Part shown: positions 27,342-51,582 of the stretch, in pieces
Layout of the letters: each line of letters starts with the position of its first letter
Position numbering within the stretch: the stretch's first letter is position 1
Assembly: GCA_045863395.1 (NCBI GenBank)
Contig: BTVJ01000002.1
Span: 192,001-256,000 of the forward strand
Direction: 5' to 3'
DNA: 64,000 bases
DNA from: Myxococcales bacterium
GTDB lineage: Bacteria; Myxococcota_A; UBA9042; JABWCM01; BTVJ01
Translations under genes and position numbers: made by a program
The notes under the pieces: generated by a model
Databases searched by the model: none
The model's input: the letters and a program-made list of their open reading frames with translations, nothing else
What the model was told of the DNA's origin: nothing

Positions 27342-27760
27342 GCCGCGCCCCAGTGCAGGCTCTTAGCCAGCGCTTCGTGCTCCCGCTGCGTCAGGAACTG
27401 ATGGAGGTCCGACCACCCCTCGCCGGTCCACGCGCCGCCGCCGTAGCCGATGAGGCCGACGTGCTTTCGCCAGACGGGCCCGGTGGGCTCGACCTCGGCC
27501 TTGGTCAGCTCGACAGCGCCGTCGGGGAGTGCGACGTAGCCGCAGTCCAGCGGGAGCCGCCCCGCCGCGTGGGAGTAGACGCGGCCGGCGCGGTTCACGC
27601 TGTAGAGGTCGTTGCCGACGCGGTACCAGTGGCAGGGCCACCGGCGCGCGCGCTTCCACAGAGGGCTGTCCAGCCAGGCGTAGAGGTCGAACGGGCGCGG
27701 CGCGGCGGGATTGTGCTGCGGAGCCTCATAATTGAGGGCCAATTGTTCGGATCTTTGCAT
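27338..27760 (-). CDS. First long gene of the leftward early operon, unknown function
   Basis: ATG 27760 lies 5 nt from a LexA-type box; coupled to the ASCH gene by a GTGA overlap. Confidence 0.55.
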   Translation of the reverse strand: MQRSEQLALNYEAPQHNPAAPRPFDLYAWLDSPLWKRARRWPCHWYRVGNDLYSVNRAGRVYSHAAGRLPLDCGYVALPDGAVELTKAEVEPTGPVWRKHVGLIGYGGGAWTGEGWSDLHQFLTQREHEALAKSLHWGAA

Positions 27761-27764
27761 TATG

Positions 27765-27781
27765 CTACTCGCGCGTTCAGT
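27765..27781 (+). promoter_or_regulatory. Myxococcus-type LexA box 1 inside a predicted rightward promoter TTGCAT-N17-CAGTAT (27755-27783)
   Basis: CTACTCGCGCGTTCAGT, 15/17 match to CTRHAMRYBYGTTCAGS. Confidence 0.55.
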
Positions 27782-27831
27782 ATTAGGCTTCTTCTGCCTC
27801 GGACCGCGACCGTCACAAGCATCATGCACCG

Positions 27832-27883
27832 AAGGTGCCGAATGGGCACAATCAAGTCAAGCGGAAACGTGCCTATACGGCAC
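27832..27883 (-). promoter_or_regulatory. Leftward early promoter PL with two repressor operators (OL)
   Basis: Minus-strand TTGACT-N17-CACCTT (27860-27832); GTGCC-N5-GGCAC at 27835-27849 and 27869-27883. Confidence 0.7.
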
Positions 27884-28159
27884 AAACGGGTGAGATGGAC
27901 TCCCGCCTGTCGTTTTGGCCAGGTCGGACGCCTGCAGGTTGACGATCTGGAAGTGGATAGAGAGGCCTGCCCGCAGGCGGGCGATGTGTGCCTAGTGCTA
28001 GCTCAGGACGGGGCGCAGGCACTCACGACGCTGCAGGACGATGGTTCGCACTTGCCGATGTCGGAAGGATTTCGGCCATTGACGCCGTCAGATGTCCACG
28101 TTCAAGGCGTGGTCATCTCTTTTCGCGCGTTCTCTCCCCGACGCTTCTCAGCCCGATGA
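27842..28159 (+). CDS. Degenerate LexA/UmuD (S24)-like C-terminal domain protein lacking the catalytic Ser/Lys
   Basis: LEVDREACPQAGDVCLVLAQDGAQALTTLQDDGSHLPMSEGFRPLTPSDVHVQGVVISF follows the S24 pattern; start could be 27824, 27842 or 27890. Confidence 0.55.
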   Translation: MGTIKSSGNVPIRHKRVRWTPACRFGQVGRLQVDDLEVDREACPQAGDVCLVLAQDGAQALTTLQDDGSHLPMSEGFRPLTPSDVHVQGVVISFRAFSPRRFSAR

Positions 28160-28470
28160 CTCTCACCACCCGGGGGGGCTTTTCCGCGCCCGACGAGCGA
28201 CGCTTCGCCAATGCAGGCCGCAACCATTGGCGCGACTTCCTCGTTGTAGTAGATCCAGCAATCCTCTCCCTGGCTCCGGCCCGCGCTCGGCACCTTCATC
28301 AGCGGAACTCCGCATTGAGCTTCGAGTTCGACGACCGTGAGCCCGAGCGTCACATCACAGTGGCGGAGTTTGCCATCGTCTTGTTGGTACACGAGCATTG
28401 TGGTTGGTGCGTACCCGCACGCAGCGACAAGAAGCACCGCGACAATCGCTGTCCGACGGAGCTTGTTCAT
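28102..28470 (-). CDS. Lipoprotein co-transcribed with the repressor (superinfection-exclusion candidate)
   Basis: MNKLRR + hydrophobic core + lipobox VAAC; ATGA overlap with the repressor stop. Confidence 0.65.
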   Translation of the reverse strand: MNKLRRTAIVAVLLVAACGYAPTTMLVYQQDDGKLRHCDVTLGLTVVELEAQCGVPLMKVPSAGRSQGEDCWIYYNEEVAPMVAACIGEASLVGRGKAPPGGESHRAEKRRGENARKEMTTP

Positions 28471-28808
28471 GTCAGCATCCCCTCTTTTGCCAGTGCTTCT
28501 GCCTGAATCCGCAACAGTCGAATAGCCTGAGCATCGAGCTGGACCAGCAAAGAAATCAACTGCGCAGCCATCGGGTCCATGTCACCCGACGGAGGGGTGG
28601 TGTAACCAAATAGTTCGTGCTCCGCAACCCCCAGGCCCCGCGCCAGGATAGGGATGTGTTCCGCAGTCCAGTTCGCCCGCTCTCGCTCGATCTTGGAGAT
28701 CCATGTGCGGTCCAGGCCGCATGCCTCTCCAAGCTGCTCCTGGCTCATTCCTTTGGCCTTGCGAAGCTCCCGCAGATGTCGGGCAAGTAGGTAAGTCATT
28801 TGCGCCAT
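28467..28808 (-). CDS. Prophage repressor, XRE HTH, no peptidase domain
   Basis: LRELRKAKGMSQEQLGEACGLDRTWISKIER..I..LARGLGV; only ~113 aa; divergent from the Cro-like gene. Confidence 0.85.
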   Translation of the reverse strand: MAQMTYLLARHLRELRKAKGMSQEQLGEACGLDRTWISKIERERANWTAEHIPILARGLGVAEHELFGYTTPPSGDMDPMAAQLISLLVQLDAQAIRLLRIQAEALAKEGMLT

Positions 28809-28846
28809 GACCTGCGATGTTGCCTTTTGCCAAGCCCGATGGACCA

Positions 28847-28899
28847 CGGCCTGAAGGGCACAAATCGTCTTGACATCATTCGTGCCTAATGGGCACTAT
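28847..28899 (+). promoter_or_regulatory. Rightward early promoter PR with operators (OR)
   Basis: TTGACA-N18-CACTAT (28870-28899); GTGCC-TAATG-GGCAC at 28882-28896 and degenerate CGGCC-TGAAG-GGCAC at 28847-28861. Confidence 0.75.
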
Positions 28900-28905
28900 G
28901 CCCCC

Positions 28906-29208
28906 ATGGACCTGCGAACCTATTGCGCGCATCGCCGCATCACAGACGAACATCTGGCCGGCATTCTCGGGGTGTCGCGTCCCTACATCACAAAGCTCCG
29001 CAACGGACGCTCGGTGACCCTCGCGCAATTGGCTGTGGACATCTCAATTGCGACTGGCGGGCTGGTGAGCATCCAGGAAGCCCTCTTCCCTGACGGGGTC
29101 CCGGCCGGAGCCACCATGACCCCAGCGGACGTACCCGCCGATCCTGCCTTCCCGCACTCCGCATCGCACGCAACACCCGAGGAGGGATCTTGCGCACCCA
29201 CCCCCTGA
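28906..29208 (+). CDS. Cro/YdaS-like HTH regulator
   Basis: MDLRTY..ITDEHLAGILGVSRPYITKLRNG..LAVDISIATGGLVS..E.LFP; ATG 7 nt after the -10, no RBS. Confidence 0.8.
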   Translation: MDLRTYCAHRRITDEHLAGILGVSRPYITKLRNGRSVTLAQLAVDISIATGGLVSIQEALFPDGVPAGATMTPADVPADPAFPHSASHATPEEGSCAPTP

Positions 29209-29681
29209 CGGCCGCAGAGCGCGCCATCCACCGACTGCTCCAGGACCGCCGCCTGCTCCAGGAGGAGCTCGCCGCGCTGGTCGGCTACGACCCAGGCCAC
29301 ATGAGCCGCTGCCTGTCCGGGCAGCACGCGCTCCCGCTTCGGGTCCTGGCCCCGCTGGCCGCCGCTGGCTTCCGCGAGCCGCTCGAGGCGGAGGTCCTCG
29401 CGGCGGGTGGGCGCATCGAGTGGGACGAGACGCCGGTCAACGTCGTCGAGCTGCACCGCACCGCCACGGAGCGTGGCGTGTCCGCGGTGGGGACGGCCAC
29501 CGACTACGCCTCGACGGCATGTGCTGCCGAGGCCCCCTCTTCGCCCGGTGGCCGCAACGTCACCCGGGCGGAGCTCTCCGAGCTGGCCCAGCAAGCCCGC
29601 CGGAACGCCACCCGCTGGCACCAGGAGCTGGCCATCCTCGAGCGCCAGCTCCGCACCTACGACCTGAGGAGGCGCCCATGA
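29190..29681 (+). CDS. CII-like HTH regulatory protein
   Basis: QEELAALVGYDPGHMSRCLSG HTH; C-terminal GG..VT..E helix; follows Cro; GAGGAGG RBS. Confidence 0.65.
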   Translation: MRTHPLTAAERAIHRLLQDRRLLQEELAALVGYDPGHMSRCLSGQHALPLRVLAPLAAAGFREPLEAEVLAAGGRIEWDETPVNVVELHRTATERGVSAVGTATDYASTACAAEAPSSPGGRNVTRAELSELAQQARRNATRWHQELAILERQLRTYDLRRRP

Positions 29682-29757
29682 AGGCGTTCACCATGGCGGC
29701 GGTGAACACGTCTGGCCGCTTCGCACGGGTCCCAAGGTGCTACAGGAGCGGGGGCTC

Positions 29758-29988: not shown

Positions 29989-30054
29989 CGCACGTACCAG
30001 AGGGGGACGAGGTGCCCCCCCCGCAGCAGCGGCGACACGCCGCGAAGGGCCTCC

Positions 30055-32736
30055 ATGGCCGGCAAGTACTCCGAGCAGCTCCTGGACGCCATCCGCCGCG
30101 CCACTGACCTGCACGACCTGTGCAGGGAGCTGGGCATCCCGGGCCACCGGGAGGGGCGGGGCGTCAAGTACCAGTGCCCGCTCCACGGGGACAGCTCCGA
30201 CGGCAAGTGGAACTTCGACGTGCGGGACAAACGGTCCCGCGAGAACGGCAAGTGCTACTCCTGCGGCAAGAGCGCCGACGCCTTTGGGGTGTGGCAGGCC
30301 GTGCGGGGAGGGACGTTCCCCGACGCGGTGCAGGCCCTGGCCTCTCGGGCGGGGATCCGCCTCGATGACGCTGCGGGGCCCCCTCCTGCTTCGACGCCTG
30401 CGGCCGGGGCTTCGCGCCAGGGGGCGGGGGCTCAGGCCAAGGGCCCGTCGCTGTGCTCCGCGGACTGGATCCCACCCAAGAAGGGGGAGGTGGTCGCGCA
30501 GTACCCCTACGTGGACGAGGCGGGCCGCGTCCTCTTCGAGGTCCTGCGGTTCAGCCCCAAGAGCTTCGCCCAGCGCCGGCCCGGTCCTCACCCTCACTCG
30601 TCGCTGTGGCTCTGGACCCTGGAGCCTGTGCAGACCGCCCGGCTCAAGGGCCGGGAGGTGGACGTGCACCTCGGGCCGGTGCGGCGCGTGCCTTACCTCC
30701 TGCCCGCAGTCCTCGCCGCGGGGAAGCGGGGCGAGCGGGTCTGGTTCGTGGAGGGGGAGAAGGACGTCCGGACGCTGCAGGCCCTGGGGCTTACTGCCAC
30801 CACGTCCCCACAGGGGGCGAAGAGCTGGGCGGAGTCCAAGGAGGAGGTGGCCAAGGCCATCGCCGGTGCTCACGTGGTGGTGCTCTGCGACAACGACGGC
30901 CCGGGCCGCGCCTTCGCCGCGGAGGTGGTCTCGACGCTGGCGGCGAGCGCAGCCGCGTCGGTGCGCCTGCTTGACCCCCTGCCCGCTCTGCCAGGGTACC
31001 AGCCGGCGGAGCACGACGACGTCACGGTGTGGGTGCGGGCCGGGGGCACTCGGCCGCTGCTCGAGACGGCGGCCGCGTCGGCGCCGCCGGCTGAGCCGCC
31101 CTCGACGGACCCTGCCGCGTTCCGGGTCGCCAACTTCCTGGCTCGGATGGAGGCCGACGCGGACGGCAACGAGTCGATGCGCCGGTACTCCGTGCCCCTC
31201 AACGAGATCCTCCGGACGCTGCACCAGGCGACCGGGGGGTGGCCACGCACGATCAACGGGCTCCTCTTCGCGCACGAGCCCCCGGCCTCCGGGACCCTGC
31301 CCGCGCCGGACGCCATCCGTCCGCTGAACAACGATGCGGAGCTGTTCGCGTGGCTGAAGACGAAGGGCACGGAGGTGAGCTGGACGGGGCGCGAGGTGGT
31401 GCAGCCGTCGCAGCTCGGGACGTGCGCCCCTGTCTCGCGTAACGAGCTGCTCGCCGGCGCACGCATGGCCAGCCCCGCCAGGTACGTCGCTGCCGAGCTG
31501 CTGCCCCACCATCCCCCCCGGCCTCTCACGTTCTACTCGTGCGGGCACATCCCCAGCGGCAACGGTAAGGCCCTTGACGAGTTCGTGGGGATGCTCAACC
31601 CGGCGAGCGACCATGACCGAGACCTGCTACGAGCGCTGATCGTGACGCTCCTCTGGGGGGGAGAGCCCGGCGCTCGGCCAGGGTGGGTGATCACCTCGGA
31701 GCACGGGGTCGGCACAGGGAAGACGACCACCGCCATCGCCATCGCCGCCATCGTGGGCGGGTGCGTCGGCATCCGGCCTAACGACGACTGGGCCAAGACC
31801 TCGGAGCGCCTGCTGTCGGACAACGCACTGAGCAAGCGCGTGGTGCTCATCGACAACCTCAAGGGTCGGCTCAACAGCTCGGAGTTCGAGTCGGCCATCA
31901 CCGACGGCACCATCAACGGCAAGCGCATGTACCACGGCGACTACGAACGACCCAACACGCTCACGTGGGTCTTCACCGTCAACATCGCCGAGCTGTCCCG
32001 CGACCTGGCCGACAGGTGCGTGGTCGTCAACATTGGTCGGGCGCGACACGGCGTCGACTTCCGGGGAGCCGCCCAGGCGTTCCTCGAGTCCAGGCGGTAC
32101 GAGCTGGTCGCAGACATCCTCGCCCACCTGAGGGCCGCTCCGCTCGACCCGATCACGACGGACAACGCTGACCGCTTCCAGTCGTGGCAGCAGGCCGTCC
32201 TGTCGCGGTTCCCGAACGGCAACGAGCTGGCCGCCCTGGCGAAGGAGCGGCGCCCCACCGTGGACTCAGACGCCAGCGACGCGCGGGAGGTGGCCGCTTC
32301 CATCGCGGACCTGATCCGCGAGCGGGGGTACTGCCCGGTGCACGAACACATCTTCATCCCGACCCGGGAGCTCGCCACGCGCTTGCACCCGCTGTTCGGC
32401 ACGCGGACCGACGTGGGGCTCAAGGCGAAGCTCAAGAGCCTCGCGCACGACAAGTCCTTGCACCCCGCGAACTTCGAGGGCAGGCTGGCAGGGATAGGGA
32501 CCCGAGGCGCAGACTGGTTCCCGCTCACCGCCATCGACACCACCCAGCGACTGCTTGGTCCTGCGCTGGCAGGTGTGACGGCTGTGACGGGTAAAATACA
32601 TTGTTCCCACTGTACACGCGGAACGACTATCACTACCCCTCCCACGTGCAGTGAGAACAATGTATTTTACCCGTCACACTCGTCACACCTGACAGATCCC
32701 CCCCCTTCTCCCGGCTACGAGGAGGGCACCCTGTGA
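30055..32736 (+). CDS. Primase-helicase (CHC2 Zn finger + TOPRIM + P-loop ATPase)
   Basis: CPLHGD..CYSCG; VEGEKD; LCDNDGPG; Walker A GVGTGKTT; Walker B VVLIDN. Confidence 0.88.
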   Translation: MAGKYSEQLLDAIRRATDLHDLCRELGIPGHREGRGVKYQCPLHGDSSDGKWNFDVRDKRSRENGKCYSCGKSADAFGVWQAVRGGTFPDAVQALASRAGIRLDDAAGPPPASTPAAGASRQGAGAQAKGPSLCSADWIPPKKGEVVAQYPYVDEAGRVLFEVLRFSPKSFAQRRPGPHPHSSLWLWTLEPVQTARLKGREVDVHLGPVRRVPYLLPAVLAAGKRGERVWFVEGEKDVRTLQALGLTATTSPQGAKSWAESKEEVAKAIAGAHVVVLCDNDGPGRAFAAEVVSTLAASAAASVRLLDPLPALPGYQPAEHDDVTVWVRAGGTRPLLETAAASAPPAEPPSTDPAAFRVANFLARMEADADGNESMRRYSVPLNEILRTLHQATGGWPRTINGLLFAHEPPASGTLPAPDAIRPLNNDAELFAWLKTKGTEVSWTGREVVQPSQLGTCAPVSRNELLAGARMASPARYVAAELLPHHPPRPLTFYSCGHIPSGNGKALDEFVGMLNPASDHDRDLLRALIVTLLWGGEPGARPGWVITSEHGVGTGKTTTAIAIAAIVGGCVGIRPNDDWAKTSERLLSDNALSKRVVLIDNLKGRLNSSEFESAITDGTINGKRMYHGDYERPNTLTWVFTVNIAELSRDLADRCVVVNIGRARHGVDFRGAAQAFLESRRYELVADILAHLRAAPLDPITTDNADRFQSWQQAVLSRFPNGNELAALAKERRPTVDSDASDAREVAASIADLIRERGYCPVHEHIFIPTRELATRLHPLFGTRTDVGLKAKLKSLAHDKSLHPANFEGRLAGIGTRGADWFPLTAIDTTQRLLGPALAGVTAVTGKIHCSHCTRGTTITTPPTCSENNVFYPSHSSHLTDPPPSPGYEEGTL
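32570..32691. repeat. 43-bp inverted repeat, candidate phage replication origin
   Basis: Arms 32570-32612 and 32649-32691 match at 40/43; each has two TGTGACG units and an AT-rich TAAAATACATTGTT. Confidence 0.75.
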
Positions 32737-33209: not shown

Positions 33210-33216
33210 TACGGGC

Positions 33217-33444
33217 ATGGACGAGGCGGAGAGGGACAGGATGCTCGCGGCCATTGCGCTGGCATCGGTGGTGTGCGGCGACAGGATGGACCGGCACGTG
33301 TGGGCTGTAGCGGTGCAGCAGCTCGCCCTGGTCAGGGACCCGCGCGGCGAGGTGCTGCAGCGCCTCGATGAGGCGCGTGATGCGCTGAGCGCGCCGGTCC
33401 TGGTGACGCTCAGCGGGCTGACGGTGGAAGGGGGTAGCCTGTGA
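33217..33444 (+). CDS. Small phage hypothetical protein
   Basis: GAGGAG RBS; coupled to the next gene. Confidence 0.5.
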   Translation: MDEAERDRMLAAIALASVVCGDRMDRHVWAVAVQQLALVRDPRGEVLQRLDEARDALSAPVLVTLSGLTVEGGSL

Positions 33445-34013
33445 CGGTGTGCGTGGCGGTGATGGACGCGACGCACGTCGCGATTGCAGCGGACGGCCGG
33501 TCCGTGAACCAGGGCGGGACCATCGTCGCCGAGGAGACACGCAAGGTGCTCCGCTTCGGGCAGATGATCGTCGCCGCCGCGGGCGAGCAGGGACTGATCA
33601 ACGAGTGGCACCACGCGCTGGACCAGGTGGCGACCGATGAGCTCACGCCGCGCGTGCCCGCGCGCCTCGCCCGTGAGCTGTGCCGGCAGGAGTGCACGAC
33701 ACCGTTCGACGGCGCCGGCATGCCCACCGCGTGGGACCTGACCGCGGTCATCGCCACGGCGCAGGGGATCTGGCGGTTCTCGTATGGGGGCATGCTGTGT
33801 CCCGTGGTCGGCTCGTGCTACGCCATCGGCTCAGGCGCGGAGGCGGCCCGCGGAGCCGTCGAGGCGATGAAGGTGCTCGAGGCGTCGTGGCCGGCCGGCA
33901 AGTGGCCCCTTCCGAGCGCGGCGCTGCTGGCGACGCTGGCGGCGATGGCGGCCTGCCGTGTGGACAGCGCGTGCGGCGGCAGTGTCCACGCGGTCAGTCT
34001 GGCCAGGGGTTGA
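33441..34013 (+). CDS. Proteasome beta-subunit/HslV-like Ntn threonine protease
   Basis: After Met removal: Thr1, Asp17 (AADGR), Lys34 (Lys33 equivalent), Gly47, AIGSG, DSACGG. Confidence 0.82.
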   Translation: MTVCVAVMDATHVAIAADGRSVNQGGTIVAEETRKVLRFGQMIVAAAGEQGLINEWHHALDQVATDELTPRVPARLARELCRQECTTPFDGAGMPTAWDLTAVIATAQGIWRFSYGGMLCPVVGSCYAIGSGAEAARGAVEAMKVLEASWPAGKWPLPSAALLATLAAMAACRVDSACGGSVHAVSLARG

Positions 34014-34032
34014 CACTGAACATTCATTCAGG
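34010..34032 (+). promoter_or_regulatory. Candidate late promoter 1: TTGACA immediately followed by LexA-type box 2
   Basis: TTGACA 34010-34015 then CTGAACATTCATTCAGG 34016-34032 (16/17 to consensus); -10 weak or unclear. Confidence 0.65.
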
Positions 34033-34058
34033 CATCGAATCACTCATGAGGTGGACCC

Positions 34059-34199: not shown

Positions 34200-34330
34200 C
34201 AAGCCGCCCGACCCCCCTGGGGGAGGTCCCAGGGGCCGAGCGAAGCGGAACATCCTCCCCCCGAAAAACGCCCCGGTTTCAGGGAAAAAATCAAATGTGT
34301 GAAGTGAATTCGGAGGCTTGAACGCGACCC

Positions 34331-34963: not shown

Positions 34964-34966
34964 GCC

Positions 34967-36316
34967 ATGGGCATCGGACAGGCGCCGATCCACGTGTCCG
35001 TGTCAGCGGAGCGGGCGTTCGGGGTGCCATGGCACGACGGCCAGACCCGAGGGATCCTGTCCACGACTCCACTGCTCATGATCGTGGCCGGTCGCGGCTT
35101 CGGGAAGACGACGCTGATGTGCGCCAAGGCCATCCGCGAGAGCCAGGAGCCGGAGAATGCGGGGCTGCCCGGCGCCCTGCTGTGCCCCACGTACCGGCAG
35201 CTCACCCGCGTGCACCAAGTCACGCTCGAGAAGCAGTTCCGCACCTTCCAGGAGACCACCGGGGTCAAGCTCCTGCGCAAGTTCCACAAGAGCGCCAAGG
35301 TCTTCGAGCTGATGAACGGAGCGGAGATCTGGCTCCTGAGCTACGAGCGCTACGAGAACCTCCGCAGCTTCACCCTCGCCTGGGTGGGGGTCGACGAGAT
35401 CACCGCGGTCAGCAACGAGGAGGCGGTCCTCGACGTGGTGCTCCCGGCGGTGCGCGGCGAGGGTACCGGGCGGATCTGGTTCTGCAACACGCCGCGTGGG
35501 CTGAAGGGCATCGTCAAGACGTTCGTCGATGAGGTGCGCGCTGGCAACCCGGACTATCAGGTCATCCACGGCACCAGCTACGACAACTCCGGCCTCGACC
35601 GCGAGCGCATCGACCGCATGCGCAAGACGATGGGCCGCGCGCAGGCCCGTCAGGAGATTGACGCCGTGCTCCTGCGCCCAGCGAACCTGGTCTACTCCGA
35701 GTTCAGCCGGTCCGTGCACCTGAAGCCCTGGCGGTACAGCTCGAGGTACCCCTACAGCTTCTGGGTGGACTGGGGCGACTCGCACCCGTCGTACCTCCAG
35801 GTGCAGCACAACGTGCCCATTGATGGGGTGCCGTCCGACGTCGTTGTCTGGCAGTTTTGCGATGACGACGTGCCGTGGGCCCGCGGTCAGTCGGTGCTCA
35901 AGGCCCGCGCTGCCGAGTGCGACCGCGAGCCCGAGGAGTTCGTGGGGGACCGGGCCGTGCGCTCGCAGATGCAGTGGGCGGCCCAGGCGTTCCCGCAGAC
36001 GCGGACGCGCAAGATGGAGACTCGAGAGGACCAGGAGATCTGGCGCGGCGTTCAGATCGTCAAGTGGCGGCTCGAGCCGGAAGAGGGCCCCCCCCGGCTG
36101 TACTTCGCCTCCAACCTGGCAGAGGACCTGCGCCAGCGAGGGATCATCTCGGCCCTCGAGCAGTACAAGCGCTGCCTGGACCCCGTGTCACAGTCGCCCA
36201 TCGACAAGCCCTACAAGGACAACGTCACCGACCACGCCAACGACGCGCTTCGGATGGGCGTTGTCGCGCGCTACGGCGGCGCCGTCCGTCGCGATCCCAT
36301 TCGTGCACCACTCTGA
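34967..36316 (+). CDS. terL: Terminase large subunit
   Basis: Walker A AGRGFGKT; Walker B VGVDE; NTPRG; SYDN; nuclease VDWG and DHANDALR. Confidence 0.93.
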   Translation: MGIGQAPIHVSVSAERAFGVPWHDGQTRGILSTTPLLMIVAGRGFGKTTLMCAKAIRESQEPENAGLPGALLCPTYRQLTRVHQVTLEKQFRTFQETTGVKLLRKFHKSAKVFELMNGAEIWLLSYERYENLRSFTLAWVGVDEITAVSNEEAVLDVVLPAVRGEGTGRIWFCNTPRGLKGIVKTFVDEVRAGNPDYQVIHGTSYDNSGLDRERIDRMRKTMGRAQARQEIDAVLLRPANLVYSEFSRSVHLKPWRYSSRYPYSFWVDWGDSHPSYLQVQHNVPIDGVPSDVVVWQFCDDDVPWARGQSVLKARAAECDREPEEFVGDRAVRSQMQWAAQAFPQTRTRKMETREDQEIWRGVQIVKWRLEPEEGPPRLYFASNLAEDLRQRGIISALEQYKRCLDPVSQSPIDKPYKDNVTDHANDALRMGVVARYGGAVRRDPIRAPL

Positions 36317-36326
36317 GAGGCCCTCG

Positions 36327-37658
36327 ATGCTCGCCCCGCAGCACACCAAGGAGATCAACACCGACGCGCAGCGCGAGCTTAGCGAGCGCCTCGATGCCTA
36401 CCACCGGCAGGACTTCCGCCCTGCCGACGCCGCGCTCCGGAAGCTCTACCCGCGCAGCCAGTCACGCATGGTCCGCAAGCCTCTGGCGCTGGTCTACCGG
36501 TACGTGATGGAGACGGCGGACGCCTACGCGCGAGCGCCGGAGCGGACCTTCTTGACGGGGGACGGGCAACCAATGGAGGCCACGCGCGCCCAGGAGCTGC
36601 TGCGCTGGTATGGTCGCCTCAACATGGAGGAGGCCTTCCAGCTCGGCAACGAACTGCTCGCCGTGCAGCGGACCTACATCGGCGCCATCCTGCCACGACC
36701 GATGGGAGGCTATCGTCACCAGGTGTGGAGACCGTACCAGTACGAGGTCACACCGCACCCGGACGATCCCGGATCGCTGTCCAGCGCCAAGGAAGTGCGC
36801 TTGGCCGTGCCTGTGGAGACGGACCGCAATCGGGTCCGGTTCGGGCTTCTGGTGATGAACCAGGAGCGGATCTACATCAAGGACGGCAGAGAGGAACGCC
36901 CCGTGTTCTTTGGGTCGACGCAGAACCCCTTCGCGGGCCGCCTGCCCCTCTGGTACGGGCGCGAGGGCTCGCCCTTGGACGGGGAGTTCAACGCCGCCGT
37001 CCCTGACGATCTGGACGCGGCCCAGACGGCGATGTGCCTGGAGCCCAGCGAGTCGAACCTGATCGGGCGATCGCAGAGCTTCGGACAGCGGACGCTGTCT
37101 GGCGGGAGCCGCGTGAAGCCGCAGGAGATGGAGCTCGGGCCAGAACTCATCCTGCCCCTCGAGGATGGCGAGATCCTGGCCAACGTGCAACCGAGCCCGA
37201 CGCTGGGACAGTACCTCGACGCCGGCGACCGGTACCTGCGCCTGTTCTTCCAGCTCCGGGGCATCAACGCCGACAGCGTGTTGAAGGGCGCCATGACCTG
37301 GTTGGCCAAGCAGATGGACCTGGCCGACCGGGAGCGGTTCAAGGTGCGGATGCGCCGCGCGCTGGAGGCGGCCGAAGCCCGCTTCCTGCAGGCCCTGGTG
37401 ACGGTCCTCAACAAGGGCGCCGTGCGCATGTGGCCCACCGATCTGCACGTCACGGTGGGCTGGCGGGAGCAGGCATGGCCGGCGGACCCGCAGAACGAAG
37501 CGGCCGCCGCAGAGACACTGCAGCGCATCGGCGTGGAGTCCGGGCCGGAGCAGATCGCGAGGCGTCGACAGATCACCATCGAGGAGGCGACGAGGGTCTA
37601 CCAGGCAAACATGACCCTCGCCCGGGCGGCCAGGGCTGCGGCTCCGAGCAGTCCATAG
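36327..37658 (+). CDS. Portal protein
   Basis: 443 aa directly after TerL; early Y, C-terminal helix then V.VGW...P.D..E pattern of SPP1-like portals. Confidence 0.75.
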   Translation: MLAPQHTKEINTDAQRELSERLDAYHRQDFRPADAALRKLYPRSQSRMVRKPLALVYRYVMETADAYARAPERTFLTGDGQPMEATRAQELLRWYGRLNMEEAFQLGNELLAVQRTYIGAILPRPMGGYRHQVWRPYQYEVTPHPDDPGSLSSAKEVRLAVPVETDRNRVRFGLLVMNQERIYIKDGREERPVFFGSTQNPFAGRLPLWYGREGSPLDGEFNAAVPDDLDAAQTAMCLEPSESNLIGRSQSFGQRTLSGGSRVKPQEMELGPELILPLEDGEILANVQPSPTLGQYLDAGDRYLRLFFQLRGINADSVLKGAMTWLAKQMDLADRERFKVRMRRALEAAEARFLQALVTVLNKGAVRMWPTDLHVTVGWREQAWPADPQNEAAAAETLQRIGVESGPEQIARRRQITIEEATRVYQANMTLARAARAAAPSSP

Positions 37659-37681
37659 GTGGAGTACTCGCAAGAACGTGC

Positions 37682-37732
37682 TTGCGTTCTTGCGCGACGT
37701 TCGTAAAGTCCATGACTAAACGTGTGTTCAGC
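37682..37732 (+). promoter_or_regulatory. Candidate late promoter 2 with LexA-type box 3 at the start site
   Basis: TTGCGT-N16-TAAAGT (37682-37709) then CTAAACGTGTGTTCAGC 37716-37732, 17/17 match to CTRHAMRYBYGTTCAGS. Confidence 0.75.
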
Positions 37733-37749
37733 AGGCATAAGAGGACAGG

Positions 37750-38840: not shown

Positions 38841-39866
38841 ATGCCACTTGCTTTCACCACCTCGGACGCGCTGCAGACCGGCATCAGGGCCTACCAGGGC
38901 GCCGTGGCCGAGGAGGCTCCCCAGCAGGACTACACCAACTTCGTGAACGTGCTCCTGGACCCCGCCGCGGCCCTGCGGTTCGTCGCCGTGCGCCCCGTGG
39001 GCCTGCCGATCTCCTGGGACGGCGAGGCGGACATCTTCGCGGACGGGGACAATGAGACCATTCAGGTGAGCCACGTCAACAACCTGGTGTTGGCGCGGTT
39101 CATCCTCGGGACCAAGATCGCGGAGCCCGACGCGGAAGCGCAGGGCCTGGATGCGGTGGCATCGGTGGCTCGCCAGCACGCTCGCCGCGGTCAGCAGCTC
39201 ATCAACCGCCTGGCCTGGATGGCGGCCTTCGGCGGCTTCTGGCTCACGGTCGACGACGGCAATGGGGGCACGTGCGCGGCCTACAGCGCGGGCCACACCT
39301 ACCCGGGCGGGACGCAGAGCAACCTGCTCACGTCGGTTCTGAGTCCTGCCGGCGTGGTCGCTGCGCTGCTGCGCCGACGCAACTGGCGCGACGGCGCCGG
39401 CGTGCCGCTCCAGCTCGCCGAGAAGGACCTGGTGCTGCTGCACGACACGAAGAACACGGAGGTGGCCAACATGGTCTGCCGCGCGCGGACCATGGACGTC
39501 GGCTACTCCGGCGCGCATCCCAGCGCCATCGGCGGCACGAGCGGCGAGAACCGAAACCAGCCCAACCGCGTGGCCGAGCTGGGCATCACGCCGCTCAGCT
39601 ACCCCATCGCCTCGCTGACGATCAACGAGGCGGCGGGAGACGACGACGACTGGATCCTGACGCGCAGGGGCGGCATCAACCTGGATCCGGACCGGTCCGG
39701 GCAGATCGTGGCGAACATCAGCAAGCCCCCGACCGTGGTCTTCAACGGCATCGAGGACAGCTCCAAGAACGATGACCTGTCGATCCACGTGATCAGCCGG
39801 CTGGACATCGCCATCGGTCTGATCTCGCCCACGAACGAGGTCACCATCGGCTCCAACGTCCCCTGA
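38841..39866 (+). CDS. Major capsid protein (Mu gpT-like HK97 fold)
   Basis: Strong AAGGAGG RBS; DG...YSAGH..SNL...LS...AAL...D.AG.PL....LV..N..N...W.L pattern; 341 aa. Confidence 0.75.
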   Translation: MPLAFTTSDALQTGIRAYQGAVAEEAPQQDYTNFVNVLLDPAAALRFVAVRPVGLPISWDGEADIFADGDNETIQVSHVNNLVLARFILGTKIAEPDAEAQGLDAVASVARQHARRGQQLINRLAWMAAFGGFWLTVDDGNGGTCAAYSAGHTYPGGTQSNLLTSVLSPAGVVAALLRRRNWRDGAGVPLQLAEKDLVLLHDTKNTEVANMVCRARTMDVGYSGAHPSAIGGTSGENRNQPNRVAELGITPLSYPIASLTINEAAGDDDDWILTRRGGINLDPDRSGQIVANISKPPTVVFNGIEDSSKNDDLSIHVISRLDIAIGLISPTNEVTIGSNVP

Positions 39867-41889: not shown

Positions 41890-41898
41890 GAGCCCGAC

Positions 41899-43119
41899 AT
41901 GGCCAACGAGGCACTGACCCGCCGCCAGAACATCCTGTGGAAGTCTCACACGGGCGGCTACAACGACACGCTGGTGACCAGCTCCGGCATGGCCGCCGCC
42001 CGCGTGTCCCCGCCGGCCTACACTCCAGGTCTGGCGCTCTTCGGAGACGAGGCGGTTCGAAGCGGGCCGTTCGCGTTGCCGCCCAAAGAGGGATCGCTGC
42101 ACGGCGGCACGCTGACCTTCCGGGGCGACCTCCTCGGGCTCCTGGCGACGGCGCCCACCGGCAACCCGACCGGCGATCTGCTCAGCGCCGCGCTCAAGCA
42201 GCTCCTCGGCGGCCAGGTCATCGCCGGGTATGCCGAGGCCGCGCTGACGGCGTGGGCGGCGTCGGCCGTCGGCATCGACAACGGGGTCTCCTCCGCGCTC
42301 TACAAGGCGGGCGGCGCGGTCATCGGTCGGAACTTCGGCACCGGCAAGTACGAGATGGCCATCGTGAAGCAGGTCACAGACGGCGGCGGCAGCGACCATA
42401 CGCTCGCGACCCTGTTTCCGCTCGTAGGGACCGCTCCGCACGCCACGGCCACCACGTGGGGGACCGTCGGCAGCTACCTGACCGACGCAGCCCCCACCGC
42501 CATCACGTTCTGGGCGCAGAGCAAGAACACCACGGGCCTGGTCATCTACGGCGGGTGCGTCTGCACCGCCATCAAGCTCGACGGGAGCTCCCGCGCCAAC
42601 CCCATGGTGGACTTCACGTTCAGCGTCAACGACGTCCGCACGGACACGGAAGGCGCGGCACTGGTGGCGTCTGCTTACACCCAGCCCCAGATGAAGCCGC
42701 CCACCGCCAACAACGGCGGTCGCCTGGTCGTCGGCACGGCCAATGCCAGGTGGCACTCGCTGAGCATCGAGCTGGGCGCGACCGTGGTGCCGCTCGAGGA
42801 CCACAACGCGCTGCACGGGGTCGGGGACGTACTGCTCACGGATCAGAAGTGCGTCTTGAAGTTCAAGACGGTGGTGACGGGAGCGTTCTCGGGCCTGACC
42901 ACGCTCCCGGCGCAGTCGCCCATGGGGTTGCACCTGGGCACGGCGCCCGGGCAGATGCACGCCATCGTGATGCCCGCCCCCACCCTGACGGCCGCCGCCT
43001 CCATCGGCGACGAGCAGGGGACCATGGTGCAGGAGTGGACGGCCGAGGCCGGCCAGTGCGCCACGGACACGGGCGCCGACGGCATCACCAATTCGCCCTT
43101 CCGCTGGTACCAGGGGTGA
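41899..43119 (+). CDS. Probable major tail tube protein with inserted domain
   Basis: AGGAG RBS; T/G/A-rich; Y.GC.....KL and P......GD..G...E motifs; precedes the chaperone pair and TMP. Confidence 0.65.
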   Translation: MANEALTRRQNILWKSHTGGYNDTLVTSSGMAAARVSPPAYTPGLALFGDEAVRSGPFALPPKEGSLHGGTLTFRGDLLGLLATAPTGNPTGDLLSAALKQLLGGQVIAGYAEAALTAWAASAVGIDNGVSSALYKAGGAVIGRNFGTGKYEMAIVKQVTDGGGSDHTLATLFPLVGTAPHATATTWGTVGSYLTDAAPTAITFWAQSKNTTGLVIYGGCVCTAIKLDGSSRANPMVDFTFSVNDVRTDTEGAALVASAYTQPQMKPPTANNGGRLVVGTANARWHSLSIELGATVVPLEDHNALHGVGDVLLTDQKCVLKFKTVVTGAFSGLTTLPAQSPMGLHLGTAPGQMHAIVMPAPTLTAAASIGDEQGTMVQEWTAEAGQCATDTGADGITNSPFRWYQG

Positions 43120-43123
43120 TGGC

Positions 43124-46618: not shown

Positions 46619-49600
46619 CGGTGCAGCTCGCCGGCGGCGCGTCCTCGCTGGCTCACCTCGAGTGGTGGGTCCCGGTGCTGGACGGCGGCCCCTTCTCCAC
46701 AGTGGACGTCTCCGTGGGCGCGGGCTACACCGGCGTGGACCTGGCGCCAGGCTGGTACCTGTTCCCGGCCTTCCTCGACGCGTTGCTCGTCGCCATCAAC
46801 GCCGCCCACGCCACCGCATACACATGGAGCTGGTACACAACGGGCGGCACGCGTCTGCTCCAGATCGACGCTGGCGAGGGAGACCCGGCCATCGCCATCA
46901 CCTGGTCGGCGTCCATGGCGGACCTTCTGGGCTTCAATTCGGGGAGCACCCCGCTCGGCGAGGCGCACCGAGCCGACACGGCCCCCGATGGCCTGGTGGA
47001 CGTGCGCACCGCCCGCTGGTGCGACCCGATGCCGCTTCGAGAGACCCACGTCACCCGCTACCGCTACGGCCGGCTGCACGCCTACCCGTGGGGGTCGGGC
47101 ACGGTTTACCGTCTGACGTGCATCTGCGACCGCGACGGCCTGACGCGCCTTCTGGAAGGTCCGATGCTCACGGGCCGGACCCGGGTGCACCAGGGCGACC
47201 TGGTGCACGCGATGACAGCCACCTGGCCCGGCGGCTACCTGGACGGGTACGTGACCCGGATCTCCAGCGACGACATGGACGGCCGCGAGCGCTGGTACCA
47301 GGTGGCGGTGGATCTGCTCGTGCCTCCTGACGCGGAGCGGACGACAGGTCTTCAGACGAACCCGCTCATCGAGGACACGTCCTTCTGGGGCTGGACGCGC
47401 TACGGGTTCAGCGTGGCGCACTACGCGAGGCTCCAGGGGATCCCCGTCGCGTGGAGTGAGCTGGACTTCGGGTGGTCCGAGTCGCACTGGACATGGACCG
47501 CCGGCCTCGTGCTCGACGGCGCGGGGCGCATCGGCTACGAGATCGACCGGCGGACTGGCGTGGGGCGCAGCGCATCGCTCAACTTCGGTCTGCTCGACCC
47601 GGACAACGCCTGGGGGCTGTTCCGTCGGCCCACCATTCGGCTCTACCTGGCCGAGGCGCTGGAGCACGACGACGCGGACGTGGTGCTCCAGGAAGACGCC
47701 ACAGCCCTGCCTTCGTCGGGGCGGGTCTTCCTCGGGTTCGAGGTCCTGGAGTACGCCAGCATCGGGGGTTTGCTCAACAACGTGCTCGAGGACGTCGACG
47801 TCAAGCGGGGCATGTGGGGCCCCGCCTACACCTACGCGGCGGGGGCCGTGCCGACATTCGCGTCAGTGACAGACGCCCCGGTGGCGTGGATGGGGCGGCA
47901 AGCCCGGGTCACCGCCACCCTGGTGGACCCGTACGGCCGACCGGTGGACGCGGCGCCCGACGGCGACCACAGCCGCGACGTGTTCCTGGGGGAGCTCGAC
48001 GGGGACCCCCAGTGGAGTGGCGAGGGCCGCTGGGACTTCACCGCCCACTCGCTGGAGCGGCGACTGACGCGGCCCATAGGCGCCGAGGTCTCCGGACGGA
48101 CCGTCGGCCTGAGCCCCGGTGAGGCACTCCGGAAGCGTCTGGTCTACGTGGAGGGCCTGCCCCTCGCCGTGGACATCAAGCTCTGGAACACCGGCGGGGC
48201 GTCGCCCGCGGTGGGCATTGGGGACGGCTACGGCGGCGCTATCGGGGAGGTGATCGTCGACGCGGACAGCCTCCGGTCCGTGGGCCAGATCGTCGACGCG
48301 ATCTGCCAGAGGGCCACGCACTACATCGGTGTGGAGTACGGGTACGCGACGTCAGTGTGGGCCGATCCCGAGGGGTGGGAGGAGCCGAGCCCGGGAGTCA
48401 TCACGGCGCGGATCGTGTCGCAGGGCGACGGCGCTGGATTCGCCGTGTTCTGCTGGCCCGCAGCGTCAGCCAGCGCCATTCTCAAGAGCACCCTGCTCAC
48501 CTGCCACAACTGGCCCTACGCGCCTTCGGATCAGCTCGGGGAGTCTGGGCGTATCACCATCGACACGAACGCCACGACCACTCCGGGCTACTACAGCGTG
48601 TTCGTGCGCGAGGCCGCGCCCGAGCTGGGGTCCGATCCGTTTCCGGCGAGCGGCTACGCCGTGGTCGAGGGGTCCGACGGCGACGAGCTCGTGCGCTACG
48701 ACCAGAAGACCGCGGTGAGTGGCGTCGCTGGCGGCCACGTCTACCGGCTCCGCGTGGTGGAGCGCCAGGTCGACGGAACGCCGGCGGTCGCGCTCAGCAA
48801 GCCAGACCAACAGGTACGAGCGGCGCAGAGGATCGCGGGCGCGGCCGGCGAGGTGATGCTGCAGGTCCTGCAGTCCTCGGGGTGGGGCATTCGAGGCACC
48901 TACGACGTGCTCCCCATCCAGGGCCAGGGCTACGGACTGAGCGACGACGTCATTGACGAGGCGTCGATCCTCGACCTGGCGCAGCCGCTCGGCCTCACCG
49001 GGCAGATCGCGCTGGTGCTGGGCAAGGAGTACTCCGCCAACAAGCTCTTCGGGGGCCTCCTCGCGTCGCGCTGGTTGTCATTCTCGCCGGTGTGCGGGAC
49101 TGACGGGCGGCTGCGCATCGGGCTGGTCCGCACGGACCCGGTGGTGACGCCCTCCGCCAAGGTGCTCACGGACGCCCATCTCATGGGCCGTCGGCCAGTG
49201 ACGCCGAAGGGCACGCACGTGGGCCCGACGACGGTGGAGATCTCGCTGGCCGAAGCGACCGTCGGCGAGAGCAAGGCGGGCAAGCTGGTCTTCCGCTCCC
49301 GGGAGGCCATCGCGGCCCGGACCGTCGTGAAGTGGGACTTTGAGTGGCACGGCGTCGGGATCATGTTCGTGAACGTGCTCGCCGTGCAGGTCGCGAAAGC
49401 GCTCCTCGACCGCGCCGAGCAGTTCATCGTTGTGGAGGTGACAGTCGGTCCCTGGCACGCCTGGCAAGCAGGCGACGCGGTGGTGGTCACATCGGACCAC
49501 CCGGGAATGTACGACTACGGGGCCGGGTCCGTGGGCGTGGCGGCGGTGTACGGGCGAGTCCTGGCAGCGCGGCGGGCCACGGACACAGCACAGGTGACGC

Positions 49601-49932
49601 TGGCCCTGCTCCTCGATGGTGCGCAGCTCCGGGGCGTCCTCTGTCCCGGCGTCCAGCTCACGGGGCGCCTCGACAACGTGATTGGGGTGCCGCCGACGCT
49701 GGCGCACCTGTACCGCGCGGGGGAGTCGGTCACAGTCTACACGCCCGGCAACACGGGCGCGCAGCGCGAGACCCTGACCATCACCGATAAGACCGGCGGA
49801 TCGCTGACAGTCTCTCCAACTCCGGCAGGGTGGGTGGGGTCGAGCAGCGTGCTCACCTACCAGGACGAGGACGCGGCCAACGGCCGGCAGGCCGCCTACA
49901 TCCACATCGACGACGGGTCGAGGCTGAGCTGA
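46615..49932 (+). CDS. Large tail tip/hub protein (~1105 aa)
   Basis: GTGA overlap; beta-rich; E...Y....V.RG-type modules; position in the tail module. Confidence 0.65.
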   Translation: MTVQLAGGASSLAHLEWWVPVLDGGPFSTVDVSVGAGYTGVDLAPGWYLFPAFLDALLVAINAAHATAYTWSWYTTGGTRLLQIDAGEGDPAIAITWSASMADLLGFNSGSTPLGEAHRADTAPDGLVDVRTARWCDPMPLRETHVTRYRYGRLHAYPWGSGTVYRLTCICDRDGLTRLLEGPMLTGRTRVHQGDLVHAMTATWPGGYLDGYVTRISSDDMDGRERWYQVAVDLLVPPDAERTTGLQTNPLIEDTSFWGWTRYGFSVAHYARLQGIPVAWSELDFGWSESHWTWTAGLVLDGAGRIGYEIDRRTGVGRSASLNFGLLDPDNAWGLFRRPTIRLYLAEALEHDDADVVLQEDATALPSSGRVFLGFEVLEYASIGGLLNNVLEDVDVKRGMWGPAYTYAAGAVPTFASVTDAPVAWMGRQARVTATLVDPYGRPVDAAPDGDHSRDVFLGELDGDPQWSGEGRWDFTAHSLERRLTRPIGAEVSGRTVGLSPGEALRKRLVYVEGLPLAVDIKLWNTGGASPAVGIGDGYGGAIGEVIVDADSLRSVGQIVDAICQRATHYIGVEYGYATSVWADPEGWEEPSPGVITARIVSQGDGAGFAVFCWPAASASAILKSTLLTCHNWPYAPSDQLGESGRITIDTNATTTPGYYSVFVREAAPELGSDPFPASGYAVVEGSDGDELVRYDQKTAVSGVAGGHVYRLRVVERQVDGTPAVALSKPDQQVRAAQRIAGAAGEVMLQVLQSSGWGIRGTYDVLPIQGQGYGLSDDVIDEASILDLAQPLGLTGQIALVLGKEYSANKLFGGLLASRWLSFSPVCGTDGRLRIGLVRTDPVVTPSAKVLTDAHLMGRRPVTPKGTHVGPTTVEISLAEATVGESKAGKLVFRSREAIAARTVVKWDFEWHGVGIMFVNVLAVQVAKALLDRAEQFIVVEVTVGPWHAWQAGDAVVVTSDHPGMYDYGAGSVGVAAVYGRVLAARRATDTAQVTLALLLDGAQLRGVLCPGVQLTGRLDNVIGVPPTLAHLYRAGESVTVYTPGNTGAQRETLTITDKTGGSLTVSPTPAGWVGSSSVLTYQDEDAANGRQAAYIHIDDGSRLS

Positions 49933-50933
49933 TGGCGAGCATCGAGACCACCTGGCAAACGGTCACGGGCCTGCAGCTCGCGGCTGGCGCGCCGTGGAGC
50001 CCGGAGCTGCTCGAGGCGCTGGGCGGCAACAACAACCTCCTGATCCGGCGGTACACCGCCTCCCTGGGGGCCGCGCACTTCCCGGCGCCGCTCACCCCGG
50101 CCTCGTCGGTGGACGCCTACGTCGACTTCCTGCGGTTCCTGGTGCCCGCATCCGCCGATGCCCGAGGGGTCACGGCTCAGATCCGGTGGAGGCCAGGGGC
50201 CGCGACGGACGGCCGGGTACGCATCTACTCCAGCGCGGATAGCGGCAAAAGCTCCGCCGATCTGGGGGTCGCAGGATCGGGCATGCAGTTCACCACGCTG
50301 CGCATCGACCCCACCGACGGCACGGATGACACCATCGTCTTCGCTGCCTCAGGTCTCGACACGGTGGTCTACTCGGTCGCGCTGAGCTGGGCGCAACAGA
50401 CGGGAGACACGGTGTCGTCACTCGTCCCACTCGCCAGCGGGGCATGCTACGTGAACACGACGGCGACCGGGGAGGCCGATCCGGAGACCGAGGCGGACAA
50501 GCCCGTCACCGACGAGCTGCTCAACCGGATGGCGCGGACTCCACGGATCCTCTACGCGGACCGGCGCGGCGTTGTGATGAGCGCCCACGACGATATGACT
50601 GCCACCCGTCGCTGGAAGGCCACGGGCGCGGCAGCACGGACCCTCGTGATGGGCGCGTTTCTCCCGACGCGCTACCCCGTGCGGGTGCGCTGGTACGTGC
50701 AGCCGGAGGACACGACCACGACGTGGAGTGTGCGGATCACCGACAGCCTATCTCCGTCGGTCTACGCGGAGATTACCCAGGCCAGCTCATCGGAGTCCTG
50801 GGGCGGCGTCACGTGGTACAAGGCGGCGAGCCCCGTGCTGCTGTCCCGCGGGGATCACGTCATCGACTGCGAGCTGGCGGCGTTCCCGGGCACCCTGAGC
50901 CTCAACGCACTGGTCGGGCTGGTGGAGGTCTGA
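49932..50933 (+). CDS. Tail-associated structural protein
   Basis: TGATG overlap; two A..P.(S/T).ELL...N repeats each followed by a beta domain. Confidence 0.55.
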   Translation: MASIETTWQTVTGLQLAAGAPWSPELLEALGGNNNLLIRRYTASLGAAHFPAPLTPASSVDAYVDFLRFLVPASADARGVTAQIRWRPGAATDGRVRIYSSADSGKSSADLGVAGSGMQFTTLRIDPTDGTDDTIVFAASGLDTVVYSVALSWAQQTGDTVSSLVPLASGACYVNTTATGEADPETEADKPVTDELLNRMARTPRILYADRRGVVMSAHDDMTATRRWKATGAAARTLVMGAFLPTRYPVRVRWYVQPEDTTTTWSVRITDSLSPSVYAEITQASSSESWGGVTWYKAASPVLLSRGDHVIDCELAAFPGTLSLNALVGLVEV

Positions 50934-50934
50934 C

Positions 50935-51489
50935 GTGGAGCACATCTACCAGCCGGACGCAGCGCACTGGTCGACCGACGACGCACCCGGCCCCACATCA
51001 CAGATCGTGCCGCACGAGGCTGAGGGCCTCACGCTATGGCCGCTGCTCGTCGACCTGTGGCAGTGTGCGGCGCTCTACGGCGCCATGGTGAGCCCGGTGC
51101 TGATCGGGGATCTCGGCGGGTCCATGAGCAAGGTGCGCGTCCGACTTGTCGTGCCAGGTCTGGCCACGCATGCCCAGATCTACGTGCGCGCAGTGGGTCA
51201 GGGCTCCGTCTATATCGAGGAGCAGACGTCCGGCTTTGCCCCCGGCTGGGCGGCGCAGGTGCCTTGCCAGGGCAACGGATCGAGCACATCGCTCGACGAG
51301 GCAGGCACGTTCATCGGGTCAGGCAGCTACGAGACTCCGACATCTCTTTTACAGCGACTGGCCCTCGTACCGGACGGGGACTCCCCGTTCTACTTCTTGG
51401 ACCTCGACATTTGGAAGGACGAGTCTCCACAGCTCACCGTGCTCAGCGTAGCACTCAGGCTTACCCGCATTGACCCCATCGTCGCTTGA
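50935..51489 (+). CDS. Tail-associated hypothetical protein
   Basis: GGAGG RBS; last gene before an intergenic promoter. Confidence 0.5.
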   Translation: MEHIYQPDAAHWSTDDAPGPTSQIVPHEAEGLTLWPLLVDLWQCAALYGAMVSPVLIGDLGGSMSKVRVRLVVPGLATHAQIYVRAVGQGSVYIEEQTSGFAPGWAAQVPCQGNGSSTSLDEAGTFIGSGSYETPTSLLQRLALVPDGDSPFYFLDLDIWKDESPQLTVLSVALRLTRIDPIVA

Positions 51490-51532
51490 CCTCCCCCGCC
51501 CTGCTTGCCCGGAAGGGATCGCGGATCGCGGC

Positions 51533-51582
51533 TTGACCATCTCGCAGACCTGCGCTAGCGTACAGCCTGAACAGACGTTCAC
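51533..51582 (+). promoter_or_regulatory. Candidate late promoter 3 with LexA-type box 4 at the start site
   Basis: TTGACC-N17-TAGCGT (51533-51561); 51566-51582 reads GTGAACGTCTGTTCAGG on the minus strand (16/17). Confidence 0.7.

Follow-up and report, generated by a model that had tools for sequence, protein, structure and literature searches.

LexA-type boxes at three predicted late promoters of a tailed, integrated prophage in a Myxococcales genome

Introduction

The late genes of tailed temperate phages are usually described as turned on by a phage-encoded activator or antiterminator, such as Q, Ogr, Mor/C, or RinA/Ltr. A prophage in a Myxococcales bacterium (assembly GCA_045863395.1, contig BTVJ01000002.1, positions 192,001 to 256,000; this whole 64,000-nucleotide stretch is called the window, and coordinates are counted from its first letter) raises the question of whether late operons can instead be controlled directly by host LexA. 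The element is, as judged from its sequence, a complete tailed prophage of 33.6 kb between 52-bp attachment (att) repeats. An earlier note on this DNA reported four LexA-type palindromes within it, one in the early control region (site A) and three ahead of late operons (sites B, C, and D), and proposed that late transcription is held off by LexA rather than turned on by a phage activator. We find that the feature is real and statistically strong, that it is known from one genome, and that the activator-free part of the proposal is not established. What appears to be new is the presence of LexA boxes at three separate predicted late promoters in a tailed, integrating phage with a CI/Cro switch.

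Results and Discussion

The late palindromes match the host SOS box

The LexA box consensus of Myxococcus xanthus is CTRHAMRYBYGTTCAGS (PMC9705874), as the earlier note had given it. Against this consensus, sites A (27765), B (34016), C (37716), and D (51567) have two, one, zero, and one mismatches, and our recount agrees with the reported positions and with the reported 15, 16, 17, and 16 matches over 17 positions. Loose matches in the window are at chance level (22 versus 17.5 with three mismatches, and 7 versus 3.9 with two). The genome of 8,772,155 bases holds 16 sites with at most one mismatch, three of which are B, C, and D, and its two perfect sites are C and one ahead of dnaE2. In other public runs of the same strain, two of which may have supplied this DNA, contigs spanning B, C, and D show zero differences, and assembly error is therefore excluded for these three sites; among the pieces listed, none spans A.

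The host lexA, main recA, and imuA genes each have a box upstream, and the host LexA is full-length (TIGR00498, E 6e-65), with its box in the spacer of its own promoter. The host RecA shares 71 to 74% identity with the RecA proteins of four metagenome-assembled genomes, labeled Myxococcales (one), Desulfuromonadales (one), and Deltaproteobacteria (two), which agrees with a place in Myxococcota without proving it. A matrix built from these three host sites only, and scored at 8,769,365 positions, ranks C 2nd, D 4th, B 12th, and A 174th. Its other top intergenic matches lie before dnaE2, a type II topoisomerase B subunit gene, uvrA, a PA0069 radical SAM gene, a DEAH helicase gene, and ftsK; among nine downstream proteins put to naming, one has no family and one is an acetyltransferase. 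A second matrix, from ten host sites chosen among the three-site matches with the phage sites excluded, ranks C, D, B, and A at 2, 3, 8, and 391 (scores 22.1, 21.4, 18.9, and 9.5), and a third, from ten recA and lexA sites of other genomes chosen as the best host-matrix matches, places C, D, and B at 3, 4, and 9 and A at 2409. The host-gene scan that the earlier note had called for thus puts the late sites among the strongest in the genome (2nd, 3rd, and 8th), and the motif, whose absence from the host SOS genes the note had named as fatal to its idea, is carried by lexA, recA, imuA, dnaE2, and uvrA.

At a threshold of 18.8, set just below the score of B, only four non-training sites are found, three of them in the prophage, which is 0.4% of the genome (0.004 expected). 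At a threshold of 14, the prophage has three sites against 0.096 expected (P 1.4e-4). None of 300 simulated prophages has more than one site. Of the 4030 host genes that follow a free stretch, 4 have a site as strong as the late boxes, versus three of the six late gaps. Chance origin of B, C, and D is excluded, and their motif is, on this matrix evidence, the host SOS box. Site A is present where it had been reported but is much weaker than B, C, and D by all three matrices, and it lies in a range crowded by chance matches (408 non-training sites score 9.4 or above).

The LexA DNA-binding domain (PF01726) is found at two host loci only, with none in the prophage. A second full host lexA (G000:C24:63436-64084) was ruled out as the binder of B, C, and D, because it has its own different palindrome, which is unique in the genome. 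Gene and palindrome lie on a mobile island, with neighbors that by inspection are ArdC-like, nucleotidyltransferase/SAVED-like, and type I restriction-like. Separately, genome G055 has about 16 exact copies of a single 16-letter LexA-like word, spread over many contigs and probably within a repeat element.

Boxes B, C, and D lie on predicted late promoters

The three late boxes coincide with predicted promoters (Table 1). As the earlier note had seen, TTGACA (34010-34015) immediately precedes B; its TGA is the stop codon of the HslV-like gene. Boxes C and D begin 6 nt past TAAAGT (37704-37709) and 5 nt past TAGCGT (51556-51561), within the 5 to 7 nt that had been reported, and D is accompanied by a weak tandem box (51550-51565, score 10.4) overlying its −10. 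Both layouts recur in the host: a box in the spacer, as at B, is also present at lexA and the radical SAM gene, and the topoisomerase and helicase boxes lie 3 and 9 nt after the −10, like C and D. The M. xanthus lexA probe is laid out in the same way as B (PMC9705874). The late −35 hexamers (TTGACA, TTGCGT, and TTGACC) are near consensus; a strict sigma-70 scan returned zero promoters in the prophage.

Site B lies 27 nt upstream of a 46-amino-acid (aa) open reading frame (ORF) and about 300 nt upstream of a putative terS. The earlier note had placed it before the terminase genes; the putative terS has no family match. The fiber label given to the genes after D finds no support in any family match. 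Of six late gaps of at least 45 nt, three contain a box and the other three do not, so the earlier phrase of boxes on every late promoter cannot be stated. A perfect 10-bp inverted repeat with a 6-nt center (37669-37694) lies over the predicted −35 of C and is possibly a terminator or a protein site.

The early control region has its own predicted operators

The CI-like repressor matches helix-turn-helix (HTH) families only, in agreement with the earlier statement that it lacks an S24 domain. All three perfect copies of GTGCC-N5-GGCAC in the window lie in the control region, two over the predicted PL (TTGACT-17-CACCTT, minus strand) and one at the predicted PR, while one-mismatch copies are at chance; their placement points to CI operators distinct from the LexA box. 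Site A is intergenic, and the left operators lie about 55 nt upstream of it. A repressor without S24 and with three predicted operators of its own, together with strong late boxes, makes a model with two locks reasonable, one held by CI and the other by LexA.

A second prophage of the host (C113) has a related CI (36%), a related Cro (34%), and hicAB-like genes. Its strong box (G000:C113:10511; score 19.6) lies just after a predicted −10 and heads the left early operon, the same position as A; C113 is likely a classic antirepressor design. In both prophages, an ORF of 86 to 88 aa lies just past the left operators, opposite PL. The C113 copy (10871-11131; L309:972-1232) matches the C-terminal S24 part of the LexA profile at 11 bits, compared with at most 4.9 bits for about 400 shuffles, and the catalytic Ser/Lys are absent. 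The copy at 27893-28159 is not significant alone (pairwise p ~0.015); Pfam, BLAST against LexA, and a fold search with a 111-aa version were all negative, and a single-sequence model reached a predicted local distance difference test score (pLDDT) of 42. The product is possibly a partner of RecA, LexA, or CI. Class-wide matches to this ORF were rejected as off-frame noise in both cases checked. Downstream of cI lies a lipoprotein-like gene (28102-28470), with a homologue in genome G043, that likely acts in superinfection exclusion.

Candidates for a late activator

The earlier note recognized no Q, RinA, or sigma late activator, and we too find no family match to one in the prophage (Pfam, PHROG, and NCBIfam). 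This absence is weak evidence, because the same libraries match few of the prophage proteins and miss portal and capsid. The claim stands as an absence of matches and is not established beyond it, since three extra HTH proteins (55311-55709, 29190-29681, and 25894-26850) and an HslV-like protease remain candidates; of the original proposal, the LexA boxes are supported, and the "rather than an activator" part is not established. No word of seven or more letters is common to the 90-nt stretches that precede B, C, and D, as expected if there is no common activator site.

The double-HTH gene (55311-55709) has a strong ribosome site, and its product shows a subthreshold sigma-70 region 4 match (E 0.0012) and look-alikes among viral Mor-domain clusters at 0.88, which is below the bar of the tool and a lead only. 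The protein has no close relative among 5.8 billion proteins, and after excision its gene would follow int on the same strand. The 3′ part of the gene contains a moderate box-like site (55363, score 13.2). The HslV-like protease starts with Met-Thr and carries a GSG motif, and it was not found in 15 related regions searched. Lambdoid phages keep the late regulator Q at the corresponding place. As a late factor, the protease is only a lead, from a single case.

Other host prophages and relatives

Other prophage pieces of the host, namely C60 (44 kb, which reads as a late region) and the smaller C136 and C154, have no site above 11.5, which shows that the late boxes are not a matter of base composition. 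Within this host, the late boxes are specific to the prophage described here.

Related prophages with the same late gene order are present in 9 other genomes of 107 from the class. The two nearest TerL proteins are 47 to 48% identical to that of this prophage; no close relative by TerL or capsid is in IMG/VR, none by capsid is among the 5.8 billion proteins, and annotated phages give no close match. Alignment scans gave few loci, and one further scan gave two, neither at late genes. Contig C103 of G043 is a partial parallel, in which weak boxes stand ahead of three features, namely the gene next upstream of terS, hicAB, and a phage gene that encodes a LexA-type DNA-binding domain; these features (L042:4545-4903 and 12057-13205) are nearer to the gp6 design of phage GIL01 discussed below. 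Tandem strong boxes in G096 were rejected as support, because they fall within a reading frame, where they encode a repeated peptide.

A perfect-box scan of IMG/VR gave at least 121 stretches, which are not counted as support. At least two intergenic boxes are present in 14 of the 121 matches listed, mostly as dense repeats in low-GC contigs, and the three-promoter layout is in none of eight inspected among them. Contigs L121, L148, and L156 have perfect boxes upstream of or within terminase/head operons.

A proposed two-lock model and its alternatives

From the boxes, their rank and position, the host motif, and the anatomy of the prophage, all of them observed, we infer binding, repression, an antirepressor, an order of release, and titration, as follows. 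In the lysogen, host LexA on the strong boxes would keep the packaging, head-tail, and lysis operons off, and phage CI would keep the early genes off. Upon DNA damage, loss of LexA would free the weak early site A first, and the freed left operon would supply an antirepressor to inactivate CI, which is non-cleavable. Clearing of the strong late boxes would follow, with deep LexA depletion and dilution of LexA over replicating phage copies, so that the late genes would be switched mainly by derepression and not by a dedicated activator. Direct binding of LexA to B, C, and D, which this model shares with the first two alternatives below, is very probable; the full two-lock model, in which the late genes are switched mainly by removal of LexA in an order set by box strength and titration, has in our view about an even chance of being right.

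Several observations weigh against it. The predicted late −10 hexamers are weak; that of the host lexA promoter (TAATCT) is equally so. In B, a G is altered in one GTTCAG half, and A has a position-5 change in common with the M. xanthus recN and pafBC boxes, which LexA leaves unbound and binds weakly, respectively (PMC9705874); A is thus a doubtful site. The first gene of the left operon (27338..27760) has zero homologues or families, including among the 5.8 billion proteins. The release ladder, the weakest step, is weakened further by Caulobacter, where box properties and score do not predict induction order (PMC12700426). Pure LexA control would also leave the lysis genes open to every strong SOS episode and make lytic growth after infection depend on titration, and the only studied phage with such wiring, GIL01, needs an activator too. 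The conservation check that the earlier note had called for came out negative as well. It covered 11 related late regions, of which seven genomes supplied nine and IMG/VR contigs two (the short genome contigs G095 and G102 were left out), and none has an intergenic site at or above 14, the best being 12.9 (probably in an uncalled gene) and 10.1. The scanned relatives are distant (TerL at 25 to 39% identity), and among the genome regions two are partial. In three of the relatives' genomes, a strong box (21.5 to 24.0) is present at recA, which makes the absence test fair for those three.

The late capsid/lysis promoter P3 of phage GIL01 has two high-affinity boxes, is bound and repressed there by LexA, and requires gp6 in addition to loss of LexA (PMC6182141). 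A gate of this kind, in which LexA represses the late promoters and a phage activator is also needed, is a plausible but rather unlikely account of the prophage. The weak −10 hexamers, the inverted repeat over the −35 of C, and the ribosome site, sigma-70 region 4 match, and Mor-domain look-alikes of 55311-55709 speak for it, the other two HTH genes being further candidates. Against it stand the lack of an activator family match, of a common upstream word at B, C, and D, and of an HTH gene at the usual spot before terS, together with −35 hexamers near consensus. At the other extreme, a tailed phage with no late activator whatever, switched by host LexA leaving three graded operators and removing LexA from an undamaged cell upon infection by titration on replicated genomes or through the HslV-like protease, is unlikely.

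It is more doubtful that the boxes arose recently in this lineage as a safety catch or a domestication step, with no part in productive lytic timing, whether by silencing leaky late promoters in the lysogen or by forming an SOS-fired particle/lysis cassette of colicin or tailocin type. The absence of boxes from all 11 related late regions and their presence in one strain only would fit such a history, as would the similar contig depths of prophage and host (19.8 versus 18.8 in one run and 8.9 versus 7.7 in another, no excess and so no sign of replication). Contig depth is, however, a poor measure of phage replication, the relatives are too distant to test conservation, and the att cores (identical over 52 bp), integrase, CI/Cro, operators, primase, and all late reading frames are apparently intact. 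Least probable is that an HTH protein of the phage uses the palindromes as its operators, or that they have no function. Three extra HTH genes, the position of A within the range of chance matches, and the related prophage that encodes a LexA-type DNA-binding domain behind a box lend this some weight; against it, the motif is that of the host SOS genes, B, C, and D cannot be put down to chance, CI has other operators, and the prophage encodes no LexA-type domain.

Relation to known LexA-controlled elements

Colicin promoters carry tandem LexA boxes, which the pair at D resembles, although colicins differ in being plasmid toxin operons with no virion. The colicin E8 and K promoters combine tight LexA repression of a lethal lysis function with a delay imposed by a second host repressor (PMC6182141). 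The betatectivirus GIL01, which the earlier note had called a partial precedent, is in fact a direct one, its late promoter P3 being bound and repressed by LexA; like GIL01, the prophage is predicted from sequence to have host LexA-type boxes at the capsid and lysis promoters of a temperate phage. GIL01, however, is tailless and non-integrating, with one late promoter, a LexA-gp7 complex in place of CI, and the LexA-like activator gp6, whereas this phage is tailed and integrated, with its own CI/Cro, three operators, three late boxes, and no LexA-type or gp6-like domain. The prophage thus appears to work like P3, yet outside that circuit, as a CI switch is present and a gp6-like domain absent.

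The staphylococcal pathogenicity island (SaPI) operon I is under LexA control (PMC5052747) and resembles the arrangement proposed for site B in that LexA governs a packaging module including terS; SaPIs differ as satellites without capsid, tail, or lysis genes of their own. The prophages Gifsy-1, -2, and -3, 186 (Tum), and N15 (AntC) have LexA-controlled antirepressors (PMC3121763), and share with this prophage a non-cleavable repressor and a box heading a small early gene (the candidate box A, and more clearly in C113). In these systems, LexA acts on the antirepressor unit, and late-promoter boxes are not described in the part of that source available. The left operon may answer to both LexA and CI, with A about 55 nt past the operators, as in the dual promoter of phi11 gp07 (PMC13492144).

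Dual control by LexA and a phage repressor is also a property of the CTX-phi rstA promoter. Both this and the phi11 case concern early or antirepressor promoters, not virion operons. A literature search that left subscription journals largely uncovered found no paper on LexA boxes at the late promoters of a tailed prophage, nor is such a case in the available parts of PMC4756842, PMC12288472, and bioRxiv 10.64898/2026.09.14.751636; LexA wiring of late genes has so far been shown experimentally only in the tailless Bacillus phage and in phage satellites. If the two-lock model is true, a CI/Cro phage would read the SOS level twice and commit to lysis only at deep LexA depletion, which would open a route to reversible induction and give one reason why many prophages show no recognizable late activator.

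Prophage anatomy and minor features

The genes expected of an intact tailed phage are all found, namely an att pair, integrase, terminase, HK97 capsid, tail, and endolysin (Table 1), and contigs of other public runs end at the att repeat. Most prophage proteins match no family, portal and capsid included. The capsid model has a pLDDT of 55, with 159 PDB matches at E ≤0.001, the best being encapsulins and phage capsids, and three of eight aligned members of the capsid alignment match head PHROGs.

Table 1. Features of the prophage and its control sites in the window
Feature	Coordinates	Strand	Basis or remark
tRNA-Ala(CGC), integration target; 3′ end holds the left att repeat	22273..22346	+	ARAGORN
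attL core, 52 bp	22298..22349	+	exact direct repeat of 55909-55960
Tyrosine integrase	22415..23605	-	phrog_1 E 3e-40, PF00589 E 4e-17
First gene of left early operon, orphan, 134-140 aa; candidate antirepressor by position	27338..27760	-	same position follows strong box in second prophage of host
Site A, weak LexA-type box; −10-like hexamers CATAAT leftward, TATTAG rightward	27765..27780	.	score 9.5, rank 391
Predicted left CI operators, two GTGCC-N5-GGCAC palindromes (27835, 27869) over predicted PL	27835..27883	.	palindrome search
88-aa ORF like C-terminal part of S24 domain, without catalytic residues; weakly supported	27893..28159	+	counterpart in second prophage
CI-like repressor, 126 aa, HTH only, no S24 domain	28467..28847	-	phrog_3 E 5.5e-13, PF01381
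Predicted PR, TTGACA-18-CACTAT, with third operator 28882-28896	28870..28899	+	hexamers, palindrome
Cro-like HTH protein, divergent from CI	28906..29208	+	weak PF13443/PF01381; 34% to Cro of second prophage
Primase-helicase	30055..32736	+	phrog_6088, PF01807
HslV/proteasome-beta-like protease, last early-right gene, directly before B	33441..34013	+	phrog_1040 E 6e-16, PF00227 above cut-off
Site B, LexA box 34016-34031 in spacer of predicted TTGACA-17-CATCGA, ahead of packaging genes	34010..34038	+	score 18.9, rank 8
Terminase large subunit (TerL)	34967..36316	+	phrog_2 E 1e-27, PF03237
Putative portal	36327..37658	+	position after terL, synteny in relatives; no family match
Site C, predicted TTGCGT-16-TAAAGT, LexA box 37716-37731 over predicted start; ahead of scaffold, capsid, and tail genes	37682..37731	+	score 22.1, rank 2
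Major capsid protein, HK97 fold	38841..39866	+	structure model, fold search; homologues match major-head PHROGs
Tail protein, putative tail tube	41899..43119	+	phrog_290 E 3e-4
Site D, predicted TTGACC-17-TAGCGT, LexA box 51567-51582 over predicted start; heads three unknown genes and lysis genes	51533..51582	+	score 21.4, rank 3
Endolysin with peptidoglycan-binding domain	53478..54602	+	PF01471 E 8e-15, endolysin PHROGs
Orphan double-HTH protein, candidate late regulator, 200 bp inside attR	55311..55709	-	PF13384, weak PF04545
attR core, 52 bp	55909..55960	+	exact direct repeat of 22298-22349

Next to int is a small protein with a DNA polymerase X thumb domain (23760-24326). The non-coding stretch before the putative terS (34200-34330) has C/G and A runs, with a look-alike in G043, and is possibly a packaging start site. 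Two small genes that end the lysis region (54783-55309) share 70% and 86% identity with a pair in C60 (G000:C60:43398-43927), where they close an otherwise unrelated late region in the same host; by their sequence identity, the pair reflects recent exchange.

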